A stretch of DNA of 59,331 nucleotides from an uncultured bacterium (GTDB taxonomy: Bacteria > Ratteibacteria > UBA8468 > B48-G9 > JAFGKM01). Location of the stretch: positions 1 to 59,331 of the forward strand of contig CAYPTS010000002.1 of assembly GCA_964413825.1 (NCBI GenBank), read 5' to 3'. The notes beneath the pieces are model-generated. The model was not told where the DNA came from. It saw only the letters and a program-made list of their open reading frames with translations, and searched no databases. Made by a program: the position numbers and the translations under genes. The stretch's first letter is position 1. Every line of letters starts with the position of its first letter. Shown piece by piece: positions 2,899 to 52,845 of this stretch.

Positions 2899-3984
2899 AT
2901 GCCGGAAGTAAAAACGAAGGTTGCGGTGGTAACGGGTCCCACGGGAGGGCATTTTTTTCCCGGCTTGGCTATGGGAGAGGGGCTGGCGGAGAAAGGAAAG
3001 ATTGAGGTGTATTTTTTCGTGCCGCGCAGGAGGTATCTGGCCGACTGGCTGGAAAAGAAGGGTTTTGGATATAATTTCATACCGGAGGTCAGACTCACCT
3101 TTAGAAACTTTTTATTTCCTGTGAAATTCCTGCATGCTTTTTTCCGCGCCTGCCTGTTTTTATCGGCCGGCAGGTTTGACTGCGTTGTTATTACCGGCAG
3201 TTATGCGACGGTCCCATTTCTGGCGGCGGCGAGGTTTTTCCGCGCGAGAATTTTCGTTCATGAGCAGAATTACCTTCCGGGCAGGGTGACAAAAATCTCC
3301 GCCCGGATTGCGGACCGCATAGCGCTTTCGTTTTCGTCTTATTCGGGCCTTCCGGAAAAAAAGTGCGTTGTTTCGGGTTTCCCCGTCATGAGTGATTTTA
3401 TGCGGCGTTTTCCGAGAGCCGGGGTGCTGGATGAGTTTGGTTTTTCTGCAGGCAACAAGACAGTTTTGGTTCTCGGCGGCAGCCAGGGAGCGCTTTTTAT
3501 CAATGAGTTGATAATCAGGAATCTGGAGTTTTTAAAGGGAAAAAATGTGCAGTTTCTGCACCTTGCCGGCAGGGGAAAAGATGTGCTTGCAGGTGAATAC
3601 GGCAAGCATGGAGTACCGGCGAGGGTTTACGATTTTTATTATGATATGGCGAAACTATATTCGGTTGCGGACCTCGTTATATGCAGGGCGGGAGCGGGAA
3701 CTCTTGCGGAAATAAGCGGATGGAATCTGCCGGCCATAGTTGTTCCGTATCCCTATGCGGGCGGGCACCAGAAGTACAATGCGCTGTATTTTGAGGAACG
3801 CGGGGGCTGTAAAATGCTTGAACAGAACATGGAAAGCATAAAGGCTTTTCCTGCAGTGTTTGAAAAAGCGATTAAAGAACTTGATGTGATGAAACAAAAT
3901 ATGAAAAAGGCGTCTATTGCGGATTCCCGCGGTGGTAACGTCGACCGGATATTGGAGCTGCTGGATGGAAAAAAACATTCTTGA
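2899..3984 (+). CDS. murG: Undecaprenyldiphospho-muramoylpentapeptide beta-N-acetylglucosaminyltransferase
   Basis: VAVVTGPTGGHFFPGLA.., VLVLGGSQGA.., ADLVICRAGAGTLAEI.. and ..GGHQKYNA.. are GT28 MurG motifs. Confidence 0.9.
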   Translation: MPEVKTKVAVVTGPTGGHFFPGLAMGEGLAEKGKIEVYFFVPRRRYLADWLEKKGFGYNFIPEVRLTFRNFLFPVKFLHAFFRACLFLSAGRFDCVVITGSYATVPFLAAARFFRARIFVHEQNYLPGRVTKISARIADRIALSFSSYSGLPEKKCVVSGFPVMSDFMRRFPRAGVLDEFGFSAGNKTVLVLGGSQGALFINELIIRNLEFLKGKNVQFLHLAGRGKDVLAGEYGKHGVPARVYDFYYDMAKLYSVADLVICRAGAGTLAEISGWNLPAIVVPYPYAGGHQKYNALYFEERGGCKMLEQNMESIKAFPAVFEKAIKELDVMKQNMKKASIADSRGGNVDRILELLDGKKHS

Positions 3985-10509: not shown

Positions 10510-10651
10510 AAAATCAAAGCCCCTCGCAAGAAGAACGGGGGTTCGGGAGTCGGGATTGGGTGTTCCCCGTAAAGAAAAAACGGGGCAAGCGGGAAAGACA
10601 AAGGAAGAGAAGAGTTTTTTCGAATCCCTAATACCGAATCTCTAATCCCGG
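10510..10651 (+). repeat. Leader-element type B, copy 1 (upstream of the oxidoreductase gene)
   Basis: AAAATCAAAGCCCCTCGC..GGTTCGGGAGTCGGGATTGG..TTCCCCGTAAAGAAAAAACGGGGCAAGCGGGAAAG..GAATCTCTAATCCCGG. The 72-nt core differs at only 3 positions from the reverse complement of 16794-16892 (hand alignment). Confidence 0.9.
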
Positions 10652-12640: not shown

Positions 12641-12692
12641 GTGGGAGAGGTCTCCTGACCTCGAAATCGGCATCGGGAGATGCCTCCCACAA
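12641..12692 (+). repeat. Hairpin repeat type A, copy 2
   Basis: GTGGGAGAGGTCTCCTGACCTCGAAATCGGCATCGGGAGATGCCTCCCACAA, between the convergent era and lon-like genes. Homologous to 2765-2817. Confidence 0.8.
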
Positions 12693-12800
12693 GTATGCCT
12701 CCTCGCTTCCTCCTTGCCGTCTTGCTCTCCGGCGAACTCAATCCGCTAATACAGCAGATTGCCTTCATCCCGATTTCACTTCAAACACATAATCTCCAAA

Positions 12801-16774: not shown

Positions 16775-16918
16775 CCCCCGAACTTTTTAAAAGCCGGGAT
16801 TAGAGATTCAGAAATGCTTTTCTCTGCCTTTGTCTTTCCCGCTTGCCCCGTTTTTTCTTTACGGGGAACCTCCAATCCCGACTCCCGAACCTCTGCTTTT
16901 TTGTGAGGGGTTTTGATT
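16775..16918 (-). repeat. Leader-element type B, copy 2 (sense with the downstream minus-strand gene 16553-16762)
   Basis: The reverse complement reads AAATCAAAACCCCTCACAAAA..GGTTCGGGAGTCGGGATTGGAGGTTCCCCGTAAAGAAAAAACGGGGCAAGCGGGAAAG..GAATCTCTAATCCCGG..AGTTCGGGGGCAAAGGAGAACAATG. Confidence 0.9.
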
Positions 16919-17012
16919 TATTATATATCTGTAGCATTTTCTGTCAAACGTTCCATAGATTTTGACTTGAAAATGGCCGGCGGTCGGTGTATAATTAGAT
17001 ATAATATTTACG

Positions 17013-17095
17013 GCCGGAGTGGTGGAATGGCAGACGCGCCGGACTCAAAATCCGGTGAGGGCAACCTCGTGAGGGTTCAACTCCCTCCTCCGGCA
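17013..17095 (+). tRNA. tRNA-Leu (anticodon CAA), class II with long variable arm, no encoded CCA
   Basis: Acceptor GCCGGAG/CTCCGGC, anticodon arm CCGGA-CUCAAAA-UCCGG, variable arm, and T-arm GAGGG-TTCAACT-CCCTC, folded by hand. Confidence 0.9.
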
Positions 17096-17380
17096 TAGCA
17101 ATCTTCTTTGAAAAGAGGGAGTTGAAGGGAGCGAAGATGTTCGGCTCCGATGAATAAGAGGAGCCATGCGGGTGGCCTACCCGAGCAGTATCGGGATGCG
17201 AGGGAGCCAACTCCCTCCTCCGGCATAGCAATCTTCTTTGAAAAGAGGGAGTTGAAGGGAGCGAAGATGTTCGGCTCCGATGAATAAGAGGAGCCATGCG
17301 GGTGGCCTACCCGAGCAGTATCGGGATGCGAGGGAGCCAACTCCCTCCTCCGGCATAGCAATCTTCTTTGAAAAGAGGGA
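17070..17380 (+). repeat. 130-bp perfect tandem array (2 full units plus about 25 nt) seeded in the T-arm and acceptor 3' end of tRNA-Leu
   Basis: Units 17096-17225 and 17226-17355 are identical by eye. Each ends GAGGGAGCCAACTCCCTCCTCCGGCA, mimicking the tRNA end GAGGGTTCAACTCCCTCCTCCGGCA. A third partial unit runs to about 17380. Confidence 0.95.
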
Positions 17381-19752: not shown

Positions 19753-19873
19753 AAAATCAAATAGCAGAAAAAAGTCAGCCGGGATAAACTGGGGGGGAGC
19801 AGAGAAACAGAAGAAGAGAAAAGCATTTCCGAATCTCTAATCTCTGCTTTTAAAGAGTTCGGGATAAAGGAGG
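19753..19873 (+). repeat. Leader-element type B, copy 3 (partial, upstream of the CBS gene)
   Basis: AAAATCAAATAGCAG.. then AGAGAAAAGCATTTCCGAATCTCTAATCTCTGCTTTTAAAGAGTTCGGGATAAAGGAGG, matching the 3' half of copy 2. Confidence 0.75.
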
Positions 19874-28834: not shown

Positions 28835-28864
28835 TTGACAATTTATAAAGCGTTGTGGTATATT
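28835..28864 (+). promoter_or_regulatory. Sigma70-like promoter TTGACA-18 nt-(TGg)TATATT
   Basis: TTGACA at 28835-28840 and an extended -10 TGGTATATT at 28856-28864. It would transcribe leader-element C copy 1 and the small membrane protein gene. Confidence 0.6.
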
Positions 28865-28890: not shown

Positions 28891-29048
28891 AAAATCATAA
28901 CCCCTCACTGCACTTGTCATTGCGAGGCAGAGCCGAAGCAATCTTGTATTAAGGTTGAGATTGCCGCGCCGGAAGACGCCCGCCTACGTCAAGATTACGG
29001 CGGACATGGCTCGCAACGGCAGAAAGCGCCGGTTCGGGGTAAAGGAGG
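28891..29048 (+). repeat. Leader-element type C, copy 1 (with about 40-nt internal insertion)
   Basis: AAAATCATAACCCCTCAC..CTTGTCATTGCGAGGCAGAGCCGAAGCAATC..TTAAGGTTGAGATTGCCGCGCC..GGCTCGCAA..CGGTTCGGGGTAAAGGAGG. Confidence 0.9.
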
Positions 29049-33062: not shown

Positions 33063-33170
33063 TAAATCGAAGCTCCTCAGCACTTGTCATTGCGAGCGGA
33101 AGCGAAGCAATCTCAATGACAATTCGACAAACAGCGTTCCCCGTAAAACAAAAACGGGGCAAACGGGAAC
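33063..33170 (+). repeat. Composite leader element: type C 5' arm fused to the type B core hairpin
   Basis: TAAATCGAAGCTCCTCAGCACTTGTCATTGCGAGCGGAAGCGAAGCAATCTC.. followed by GTTCCCCGTAAAACAAAAACGGGGCAAACGGGAA. Confidence 0.8.
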
Positions 33171-48391: not shown

Positions 48392-48984
48392 CACGAAGGA
48401 CATTTATCAGGCAACTGGCGGCGTTTTCTCTGCTTATTTTCGGCGGCGTCCGCTTTCTCTTTAAACCCGGCAAAAGGGGTTTTATAAGGCCTCCGGGTTC
48501 CGTAACTGAAAATGATTTTAATACAAAGTGCGTGAAATGCGGCAAATGCATACTTGTATGTCCTGCAAAATGCCTTAAGCCGGTACCGATTGAAAAAGGC
48601 ATTGTCGAATGGGGGACTCCTCACGTTATCCCCAGAGAAGCAGGGTGCATAAGATGTATGAACTGTTCAAAGGTTTGCCCTTCTTCCGCCATTGCAAGGG
48701 TAGGGCGCAGCAGTATAAAAATGGGTACTGCGGAGATAAACAGGGATAGATGCCTGGTCTGGAAGCACAATAAGGACTGTCTGGTCTGCATGGAATACTG
48801 TCCTGTCGGCGCCATAGACGTGGATTATCAAGGCAGGCCGGTTGTAAACGAAGATTTATGTGCGGGCTGCGGTTTATGCGAGGAGAATTGTCCGGTAAAG
48901 GGCGAATCGGCCATAATAGTTTCAAACCGCGGAGAAAAAAGATATCATATAAAGGAAAGAAGTTACAGAGAGACAAAATCATGA
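48388..48984 (+). CDS. Tat-signal ferredoxin with four CxxCxxCxxxCP clusters
   Basis: MTRRTFIRQLAAF.., CVKCGKCILVCP, CIRCMNCSKVCP, CLVCMEYCP and CAGCGLCEENCP. Confidence 0.8.
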   Translation: MTRRTFIRQLAAFSLLIFGGVRFLFKPGKRGFIRPPGSVTENDFNTKCVKCGKCILVCPAKCLKPVPIEKGIVEWGTPHVIPREAGCIRCMNCSKVCPSSAIARVGRSSIKMGTAEINRDRCLVWKHNKDCLVCMEYCPVGAIDVDYQGRPVVNEDLCAGCGLCEENCPVKGESAIIVSNRGEKRYHIKERSYRETKS

Positions 48985-49098
48985 CCCCTAAGCGCTTGTC
49001 ATTGCGAGGCGAAGCCGAAGCAATCTCTTAATAAGGTTGGGATTGCCGCGCCATAAAACGGCTCGCAATGACGAAAAACGTCGGTTCGGGGTAAAGGA
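48974..49098 (+). repeat. Leader-element type C, copy 3 (upstream of tatA; its 5' module overlaps the ferredoxin stop codon)
   Basis: AAAATCATGACCCCTAAGCGCTTGTCATTGCGAGGCGAAGCCGAAGCAATCTCTTAATAAGGTTGGGATTGCCGCGCCATAAAACGGCTCGCAATGACGAAAAACGTCGGTTCGGGGTAAAGGAGA. Confidence 0.9.
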
Positions 49099-49107
49099 GA
49101 GAGCAAT

Positions 49108-49305
49108 ATGTTTAATCTGGGACCAGGAGAACTTGTTGTAATTTTGTTGATTTTGCTTCTGCTTTTCGGCGCGAAAAGGCTTCCTGAAATAGGTCGCTCC
49201 ATAGGAAAATCGCTCGGTGAATTCAAAAAAGGCGTAAAGGAAAGCGAAGACCCTTTTCGAAATGTTACCTTGAAGGAACACGAAAGGGACGATGAAAAAC
49301 GATAA
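49108..49305 (+). CDS. tatA: Twin-arginine translocase subunit TatA/E
   Basis: MFNLGPGELVVILLILLLLFGAKRLPEIGRSIGKSLGEFKKG. Confidence 0.9.
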   Translation: MFNLGPGELVVILLILLLLFGAKRLPEIGRSIGKSLGEFKKGVKESEDPFRNVTLKEHERDDEKR

Positions 49306-51618: not shown

Positions 51619-51744
51619 TGTTCCCCCTGGCTCTCTCTCATTGTCATTGCGAGCCCCGTTTTCGGGGGCGCGGCAATCCCGGCCTTAACAGGAGATTGCT
51701 CCGGCTTCGCCCCGCAATGGCAAGCGGTGAGGAGTCCTGATTTT
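51619..51744 (-). repeat. Leader-element type C, copy 4 (sense with pdxJ; fills the whole hisC-pdxJ spacer)
   Basis: The reverse complement reads (TAG)AAAATCAGGACTCCTCACCGCTTGCCATTGCGGGGCGAAGCCGGAGCAATCTCCTGTTAAGGCCGGGATTGCCGCGCCCCCGAAAACGGGGCTCGCAATGACAATGAGAGAGAGCCAGGGGGAACA(ATG). Confidence 0.9.
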
Positions 51745-52845
51745 CTATAGTATTTCCGTCAAGTGCCTTACAAGAATGGAATTTTCCTCCGGCGTCCCTA
51801 TTGTTACCCGTGCGTATTCCTGCCCTATTCCCGCCATACTGCGTATGATTATACCCCGCATTTCCAGTTTCTTTATTATGTCCCCGGCATTTCTCTTGAA
51901 ACGGCACAGGATAAAATTTGCCTCGGTGGGGAAGCATTTTACGCCCAGTTTTTCAAGTTCCGGAAAGAGATATTTTTTACCTTCGGTATTGTTAATGTAC
52001 GACTTTTTCACGTATTCTTCGTCGTCGAGGGCGGCAAGCGCCGCTTCCTGCGCCGGCGCCGTTGTGTTGAAAGGCGGACGTATCCGTTCCATGAAACCTG
52101 TTATTTCGCTGTTTGCCGCGCCGTACCCTATCCGGAGCGCCGCAAGGCCGTATATTTTGGAAAACGTCCTCGTTACAATGACGTTTTTGCTTTGCACGTA
52201 GGGATAAGCGGTTCCGAAGTTTTTATCTTCCACGTATTCCATGTATGCCTCGTCGGAAATAATAACTACGTCGTCCGGCACCTTCTCCATGAACCTTGCG
52301 AGCTGGTCGGCGTAAATTATGTTTCCCGTGGGGTTGTTGGGGTTGCACAGTATAATAACCCTTGTCTTAGAGGTGATTTTCGCAAGGAACATGTTCATAT
52401 CATAGGAAAAATCCTCTTTGAGCGGTATCTCGACAGTTTTTGCGCCTATCTTCATCGCAAGTATTTTGTAAATGAGAAAAGACGGGGCCGGGTATATCAC
52501 CTCTTCCCCGGGATTTATAAAAGTCTCCATTGCCATGGATATAATCTCGCTGGAGCCGCTCCCCATGATTATGTTGTCCGGCGCGCATTTTGAAACCTCG
52601 GCGATTCTGTTTTTCAGGTAATAGCCGGAGCCCTCCGGATAGCGGTATATCCTGTCCGCGCATCTTTTGAATGCCTCTGCCGCTTTCGGCGACGGCCCCA
52701 TGGGATTTTCGTTGGATGCCAGTTTGACAATCTTTTCCATGTCCAGTCCGTACGCCCTGTTCAGTTCCTCCATCGGTTTTCCCGGAACGTACGGCGAAAT
52801 CCTTTTTATCCCTTCCCGTACAATTTTTTCAACATTATTGTCCAT
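51745..52845 (-). CDS. hisC: Histidinol-phosphate aminotransferase
   Basis: ..KLASNENP.GPSP.., ..Y.YP.. and ..TFSKIYGLAALRIGY. Confidence 0.9.
   Translation of the reverse strand: MDNNVEKIVREGIKRISPYVPGKPMEELNRAYGLDMEKIVKLASNENPMGPSPKAAEAFKRCADRIYRYPEGSGYYLKNRIAEVSKCAPDNIIMGSGSSEIISMAMETFINPGEEVIYPAPSFLIYKILAMKIGAKTVEIPLKEDFSYDMNMFLAKITSKTRVIILCNPNNPTGNIIYADQLARFMEKVPDDVVIISDEAYMEYVEDKNFGTAYPYVQSKNVIVTRTFSKIYGLAALRIGYGAANSEITGFMERIRPPFNTTAPAQEAALAALDDEEYVKKSYINNTEGKKYLFPELEKLGVKCFPTEANFILCRFKRNAGDIIKKLEMRGIIIRSMAGIGQEYARVTIGTPEENSILVRHLTEIL

Follow-up and report, generated by a model that had tools for sequence, protein, structure and literature searches.

What is the hairpin-forming repeat that lies in front of four unrelated genes on a 59,331-nt stretch of DNA from an uncultured bacterium of the Ratteibacteria (GenBank assembly GCA_964413825.1, contig CAYPTS010000002.1, positions 1 to 59,331; hereafter the window)? 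An initial annotation, made from the letters alone, called it a type C leader element locked in orientation and flagged the copy at 48974-49098, upstream of tatA. Our data indicate that the element is a new sequence variant of the Ssn-related hairpin repeats, or CGTC-type dimers of repetitive extragenic palindromes (REPs), nested in a lineage-specific leader module. Because the same hairpin pair flanks the ssn nuclease gene in other bacteria, the most likely reading is that of a DNA repeat, selfish or domesticated, and not of a dedicated RNA leader. The annotation's idea of a non-coding, hairpin-forming repeat resembling REPs or bacterial interspersed mosaic elements is supported, whereas an orientation-locked RNA leader as a property of the hairpin is not.

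The hairpin pair and its link to ssn-type genes

The core of the element is 75-105 nt long and consists of an inverted pair of ~30-nt hairpin units. Each unit opens with Y-GTC and closes with a trailing C. Between them a 5-bp stem (ATTGC/GCAAT) carries an internal loop, GA/GAA or GA/GCG, and above this a variable apical stem-loop that begins with G and finishes with C. In the flagged copy the left unit is GTCATTGCGA[GGCGAAGCC]GAAGCAATC, and the minus strand gives GTCATTGCGA[GCCGTTTTATGGC]GCGGCAATC for the right unit. The parts of this copy are as follows.

48998-49072, plus strand: core dimer of the flagged copy (copy 3), an inverted pair of hairpin units
48998-49025, plus strand: left unit, with GTC tag, ATTGC/GCAAT basal stem, GA/GAA loop, GGC-GAA-GCC apex and trailing C
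49026-49040, plus strand: spacer between the units, TCTTAATAAGGTTGG
49041-49072, minus strand: right unit, inverted, GTCATTGCGA-[GCCGTTTTATGGC]-GCG-GCAATC

Every intact unit of the window, like the family at large, has GTC directly before ATTGC, and ahead of the GTC comes T in 57% of dimers and C in 34%. A C directly follows GCAAT in every window unit and in the family consensus.

As the initial annotation predicted, the element folds into a long interrupted stem. The RNA fold of 48974-49098 had a free energy of -45.9 kcal/mol (z = -3.65), and the DNA fold of the core (48995-49075) reached -20.2 kcal/mol, the z-scores being -4.7 for the plus and -3.8 for the minus strand. Both strands of the element fold about equally well. 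The annotation had also asked for covariation in the stem, and the stems do covary. The basal stem shows the compensatory variant ATCGC/GCGAT, and apical segments with at least 3 contiguous Watson-Crick pairs made up 36% of 300 distinct segments from all units versus 7% of shuffles. For the apex of the right-hand unit (SL2), 62% of distinct sequences had such pairs versus 8% of shuffles. Because the four conserved segments all vary in concert, covariation fits two neighbouring unit hairpins as well as a single long, cloverleaf-like one. Rfam covariance models, a further check proposed in the annotation, returned only a tRNA above the gathering threshold in the window, and permissive matches at the element had E values of at least 0.75; no Rfam family matches the element.

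The link to a nuclease comes from other genomes. At one genome locus (L139) a left unit is followed by a 97-aa GIY-YIG open reading frame (ORF) and an inverted right unit, and the TGA stop codon of this ORF overlaps GAGATTGC. The L139 protein has at least 8000 homologues of ~95 aa, all of them PF01541 proteins. The cassette protein is 45% identical (E = 6e-30) to the SsnA orthologue of N. gonorrhoeae, whose gene is followed directly after its stop codon by the NTS repeat CGTCATTCCCGCTCAGGCGGGAATC. NCBIfam contains no model specific to the nuclease, and the sole relative by sequence in the PDB is 1ZG2, an uncharacterised UPF0213 protein.

We then retrieved 80 metagenomic ssn loci via the protein and not via the repeat. 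Units occurred on both sides of the ssn gene in 47 of the 70 loci with both flanks available, and at least one unit was present in 64 of these 70. The order forward unit, ssn, reverse unit, in which the tags point outward, was seen in 37/68 metagenomic loci, and at least one adjoining unit was found in 68/68. Unit density was 9.2 per kb within ~150 nt of the ssn gene versus 0.79 per kb further off, which is a 12-fold local enrichment. The ssn stop codon reads TGAGATTGC, overlapping the right unit, in 21 of 74 loci. An ssn-type gene was present in only 2 of 240 loci selected via the repeat, and this fits many gene-less copies per nuclease gene. By sequence comparison, the window units are shown to belong to an ssn-linked family and the linked protein to be homologous to Neisseria SsnA. 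There are also cassette pairs that are ~90% identical within different flanks, which gives a hint of mobility.

Not all ssn loci have the same layout. In some cassettes, such as that at L243 (~1780-1880), a forward unit or a whole gene-less dimer stands directly after the ssn stop codon in place of the reverse unit, and the Neisseria-like arrangement with tags facing the ssn gene was found in 6/68 loci. Several cassette architectures therefore coexist. An ssn homologue 68% identical to the L139 protein lies on a Planktothrix agardhii plasmid (L322; NZ_LR882964.1, 18450-19513), with an MmeI-type restriction-modification gene on one side and DISARM drmA on the other. The units that flank it are of yet another variant (GTCATTCTGAG..GAAGAATC), and three partial copies in tandem are among them.

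The NTS repeats of Neisseria (CGTCATTCCCGCGMAVGCGGGAATCYRG) and related hairpins of the Ssn-related motif (SRM) flank ssnA genes, which encode a 94-aa single-domain GIY-YIG protein (CDD cd10448; Chenal et al., Nat Commun 2025, PMC11893778). SsnA binds the hairpin only as single-stranded DNA (ssDNA) and cuts a few nt 5' of the NTS, and it is inactive on double-stranded DNA and on RNA. Cleavage needs 3 nt before the palindrome and binding depends most on the C after it. The Neisseria system lowers transformation by NTS-flanked DNA, and the authors liken the NTS-ssnA-NTS layout to an insertion sequence (PMC11893778). The initial annotation knew of no assigned function for its repeat; according to this work, such repeats are recognition sites of Ssn ssDNA nucleases (PMC11893778).

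Window-type units share with NTS the 5' (C/T)GTC tag, a stem that opens and closes with AT and the C after the stem. They also occur as hundreds of intergenic copies and flank a ~95-aa single-domain GIY-YIG gene. The stem is, however, ATTGC...GCAAT here rather than ATTCCCGC...GCGGGAAT as in NTS, it is broken by a GA/GAA internal loop and it carries a variable apical stem-loop. The tags point mostly outward from the gene whereas they point toward it in Neisseria, and the window copies are gene-less dimers in a family whose hosts are mostly uncultivated phyla.

A second group of relatives is the CGTC/TGTC-tagged REPs, whose stems open with AT and which occur mostly as inverted dimers (Di Nocera, De Gregorio & Rocco 2013, PMC3733652). 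The same study found no tyrosine transposase with these REPs on its flanks (PMC3733652). The window-type units agree with them in the CGTC/TGTC tag, the AT-start stem, the short tail, the absence of an associated transposase and the formation of inverted dimers able to fold into larger hairpins. The published families differ in having uninterrupted stems of 8-9 bp and loops of 4-5 nt, with no associated gene reported. We set the ATTGCGAG type against the four families by description, since the family consensuses are given in figures only, and neither the Di Nocera nor the RepRanger paper holds a text-searchable consensus for ATTGCGAG.

The arrangement is also like that of REPINs, which are inverted REP doublets, and RAYTs, the REP-associated tyrosine transposases: many non-autonomous inverted doublets accompany a rare repeat-flanked gene for a hairpin-specific, ssDNA-cleaving enzyme (Bertels & Rainey 2011, PMC3116915). 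In that system, though, the enzyme is an HUH/Y1 transposase and the tag is GTAG, compared with a GIY-YIG nuclease and GTC here. REPINs are lineage-specific and vertically inherited (PMC3116915), whereas the present unit is nearly identical across phyla.

Spread, orientation and the leader module

A profile hidden Markov model (HMM) was trained on 70 distinct dimers of other organisms, leaving out the window and L121, a contig of the same species. It matched exactly four sites in the window and nothing else; therefore, the window copies are ordinary members of a cross-phylum family. They comprise three full copies and one half copy, and lie where the initial annotation had placed them.

28916-29020, plus strand: copy 1, core dimer; head 28891-28907, tail 29030-29047; HMM match 28916-29016 (plus), E = 7e-12
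33086-33123, plus strand: copy 2, intact left unit plus terminal AATGAC of the right unit (internal deletion); head 33064-33080; HMM match to the half copy 33086-33117 (plus), E = 1.5e-5
48998-49072, plus strand: copy 3, the flagged copy; HMM match over the same interval (plus), E = 1.9e-15
51643-51721, minus strand: copy 4, core dimer with mutated left unit (GCCATTGCGGG); head 51728-51744; precedes pdxJ; HMM match 51643-51719 (minus), E = 8e-11

With one mismatch or fewer, GTCATTGCGAG occurs 5 times in the window versus 0.88 expected, and none of 100 shuffles reached 5. There are 7 occurrences of GAAGCAATC versus 0.68 expected, of which 3 are inside repeat copies. A match of the unit regular expression at 426-470 was discarded as a chance match in coding DNA.

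The family is widely distributed. We searched IMG/VR with CATTGCGAG-N5-14-GAAGCAATC and GTDB species genomes with GCAATCT-N8-25-GATTGCCGCGCC, which is derived from the window dimer. The unit pattern was found in more than 120 IMG/VR contigs, both singly and in inverted pairs, and the dimer pattern in more than 119 GTDB contigs. A wide occurrence of the GTCATTGCGAG...CTCGCAATGAC palindrome in environmental genomes, as suggested in the initial annotation, is thereby confirmed. Among the genome-contig matches listed, about 85 of 124 were full dimers and about a quarter were chance matches in GC-rich genes. Metagenome-assembled genomes (MAGs) from ten phyla or more carry the hairpin pair. Hosts include Patescibacteria (Berkelbacteria, Saccharibacteria, Doudnabacteria), Planctomycetota, Elusimicrobiota, Chloroflexota, Nitrospirota, Omnitrophota, WOR-3, Ignavibacteria, Clostridia, and gamma- and delta-proteobacteria. 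In the IMG/VR loci (L001-L120, for example L002 and L013), single units lie in spacers of two groups of related phage-like contigs, several per contig, on one strand and often directly before a ribosome-binding site. At L042 (2697-2818) four 33-nt unit copies (GTCATTGCGAGCCTGCGAAGCAATCTGGTCGTC) follow each other in tandem with no spacers.

All four window copies lie between co-directional genes in sense orientation, as the initial annotation noted. Across other genomes the orientation is not fixed. Among asymmetric dimers between close co-directional ORFs, 20 were sense and 14 antisense (binomial p = 0.39), while a further 6 lay between divergent and 4 between convergent ORFs. This means that the hairpin pair has no locked orientation, and the claim of an orientation-locked leader fails for the family as a whole; the annotation had itself said that random orientation across genomes would speak against it.

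We also looked for signs of insertion. The initial annotation had considered a match to a MITE (a miniature inverted-repeat transposable element) with target-site duplications, and no such duplications beyond chance were found in 163 distinct dimers (median 84 nt). In 132 of the 163 there was no direct repeat at the junctions, and the distribution equalled that of a shuffled-partner control. All-against-all clustering of ORFs from 240 element-selected loci gave recurrent phage families among the neighbours in the viral set only and none in genomes, and no recurrent transposase was found within ±4 kb of element-selected loci. Synteny among the fetched loci provided no usable orthologous empty sites; the best protein match among these loci was an Omnitrophota leucyl-tRNA synthetase with 55% identity. 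A literature search by sequence and by peptide words yielded no relevant paper.

The family comparison puts the AAAATCA..CCCCTCA and GGTTCGGGGTAAAGGAG modules outside the widespread hairpin element. The AAAATCA..CCCCTCA head and the GGGGTAAAGGAG tail belong together in a leader module of their own, which is specific to the lineage and brings the Shine-Dalgarno sequence with it. The 125-nt type C element of the initial annotation is thus composite, made up of the widespread core dimer and of this head and tail.

48975-48991, plus strand: head AAAATCATGACCCCTAA of the flagged copy, overlapping the ferredoxin stop codon and outside the widespread element
49082-49099, plus strand: tail CGGTTCGGGGTAAAGGAG of the flagged copy, the Shine-Dalgarno sequence of tatA (ATG at 49108)
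3620-3636 (minus), 10510-10526, 16904-16920 (minus), 28891-28907, 33064-33080, 48975-48991 and 51728-51744 (minus): the seven heads in the window

The head pattern [AT]AAATCA-N2-3-CCCCTC[AG] occurs at these seven sites and all seven are sense to the downstream gene, with or without a hairpin pair. Heads stand immediately 3' of the upstream stop codon in 4 of the 7 cases, and the tail form ..GGGG(T)AAAGGAG serves the downstream gene as its Shine-Dalgarno sequence. What lies between head and tail varies: it is either an SRM-type dimer or other repeats. On L224, a related MAG contig, a module filled with a dimer has an empty module right behind it in tandem. Outside the window, the head/tail module was found only in L121 and L224. 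The head/tail module is separable from the hairpin pair, and it explains the orientation lock, which the hairpin pair does not.

Pfam matches confirmed the neighbours listed in the initial annotation. Copy 1 lies between aroE and the gene for a 77-aa membrane protein, copy 2 between a GntR/LacI-type regulator and a URO-D-like gene, copy 3 between a 4Fe-4S ferredoxin and tatA, and copy 4 between a class I/II aminotransferase and pdxJ. The reported contact of AAAATCA with upstream stop codons was seen as well: the ferredoxin ends in aaa tca TGA at 48976-48984, overlapped by the head of copy 3, and the aminotransferase TAG at 51745-51747 abuts the AAAATCA of copy 4. A sigma70-like promoter lies upstream of copy 1 at 28835-28864. 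The right unit of copy 1 is degenerate (CTCGCAACGGC) and has a long apical stem-loop; what had been described as a ~40-nt insertion in the stem is actually this longer right-unit apex (CCGCC...GGCGG). Copy 2, the left unit plus the last 6 nt of the right unit, is fused to a different repeat (33136-33169) that recurs at 10562 and 16836.

Weighing the readings

We think it probable that the window copies are gene-less (ORF-less) inverted dimers of the Ssn-related motif, that is, REPIN- or MITE-like derivatives or targets. An Ssn nuclease, encoded elsewhere in the genome or formerly present, would bind the units on ssDNA, and the units may become single-stranded during replication, transformation or in transcription bubbles. 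With the tags outward, a cut 5' of each unit would come to lie at either end of the dimer, the two cuts being on opposite strands. Repair or copying initiated by the nuclease may then have spread the dimers. In this lineage a dimer would have been captured in the loop of the head/tail leader module and the composite propagated as one unit, which would explain the constant sense orientation. Should the dimer act on mRNA, for instance as a stable hairpin at the 5' end or between cistrons, this would be a side effect, and the data can be explained without it.

Several observations weigh against this idea. All five copies of the lineage (four in the window and one in L224) are sense and abut a ribosome-binding site, and therefore an RNA-level role in this lineage is possible. 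No ssn gene was found in the 59-kb window, nor in L121 or L224, and a cognate Ssn in the organism is putative. We infer recognition of the ATTGCGAG variant by Ssn from its likeness to Neisseria NTS. The orientation statistics given above rest on heuristic, ORF-based gene calls. Finally, the published SRM search pattern, HGTCWYN(0-2)YYVSBRHN(0-5)WNVSBRGN(0-2)RNCYNB, had no matches in the window on either strand and misses both the window units and the generic ATTGCGAG unit; a Neisseria NTS control does match it. A very large part of the family that crosses phyla, with interrupted stems and variable apices, escapes this pattern, and the branch has probably been under-counted.

The observations on sense copies could also be accounted for by a cis-acting RNA leader or intercistronic element that is transcribed and under selection for its RNA hairpin, acting as stabiliser, attenuator or processing site. 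REPs stabilise upstream mRNA in E. coli. The 4/4 window copies and the L224 copy are sense, the hairpin ends 6-20 nt ahead of the Shine-Dalgarno sequence, the RNA fold is strong (z = -3.65), and copy 1, ~27 nt downstream of the strong sigma70-like promoter, would form a 5' untranslated region. However, the separable head/tail module accounts for the sense lock, and the 20 sense and 14 antisense dimers across the family, with others in divergent and convergent spacers, are at odds with a leader. The two strands fold with about equal strength, the hairpin is not followed by a T-run or by terminator features at any window copy, and there is no Rfam match. In addition, the conserved bases are those on which an ssDNA nuclease without binding to RNA depends (PMC11893778). 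We consider a dedicated RNA leader unlikely.

Mobilisation by known transposases was considered as well. Inverted doublets of small hairpins in many intergenic copies with no target-site duplications, and an overall likeness to REPINs (PMC3116915), would suit a REPIN moved by a RAYT (Y1/HUH). Yet the tag is YGTC and not GTAG, the gene nested between the units encodes a GIY-YIG nuclease, and a published survey of CGTC repeats found none that flank a tyrosine transposase (PMC3733652). A phmmer search with E. coli RayT had 0 matches (E ≤ 1) among 15,835 six-frame segments of the window and all loci (~2.3 Mb), and this candidate was rejected as highly improbable. A classical MITE, the deletion derivative of an insertion sequence with a DDE transposase, would have terminal inverted repeats and target-site duplications. 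The inverted repeats of at least 11 bp (GTCATTGCGAG/CTCGCAATGAC), the size of 70-120 bp and the intergenic position conform to this. It was nevertheless rejected because target-site duplications did not exceed chance in the 163 dimers; single units are common too, no recurrent transposase lies within ±4 kb, and conservation across phyla is atypical given that 97% of prokaryotic MITE clusters are genus-specific (PMC11602168). We give such an origin hardly any weight.

Gene-less dimers related to Ssn repeats, the reading we prefer for the window copies, lead to the further idea that the unit-ssn-unit cassette is an autonomous element that spreads horizontally, driven by the GIY-YIG ssDNA nuclease. 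We put this forward tentatively and regard it as somewhat doubtful. If true, the cassette would be a transposon or homing class apart from those of the DDE, Y1, serine and tyrosine kinds, the dimers without a gene, those of the window included, would be its miniature non-autonomous derivatives, and its mobility would explain the near-identity of ~80 nt of non-coding DNA from bacteria of the candidate phyla radiation to proteobacteria. The nested unit-gene-unit layout together with abundant gene-less dimers strengthens the idea of a mobile or domesticated element, by analogy with REPIN-RAYT; the Ssn paper raised this idea as a hypothesis only (PMC11893778).

When environmental MAGs are annotated, many unexplained palindromes and short hypothetical proteins can be assigned to Ssn-related repeats. 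Peptides such as VIASEAKQS and LAMT are presumably examples of short hypothetical proteins that arise from them. Direct evidence would be needed before the four spacers of the window are taken for conserved regulatory RNAs. For biotechnology, each unit variant predicts a new ssDNA-nuclease specificity.

Other repeats in the window

A second repeat family (GTTCCCCGTAAAGAAAAAACGGGGCAAGCGGGAA, CCGAATCTCTAATCCCGG..AAAGGAGG) is also found upstream of start codons, with copies 85-91% identical.

10531-10636: second repeat family
16795-16900, minus strand: second repeat family
16777-16838: second repeat family
19802-19863: second repeat family
33136-33169: second repeat family

A 57-nt hairpin-rich direct repeat (GTGGGAAAGGTCTCCCGACC...GGAGATGCCTCCCAC) occurs at 2766-2822 and 12641-12697 with 86% identity. 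The sole tRNA gene (17013-17095) overlaps the start of a 130-nt unit present as 2.3 head-to-tail repeats with 100% identity (17078-17380), and this tRNA-overlapping tandem repeat (17013-17380) could be a duplicated attachment site or an assembly artefact.

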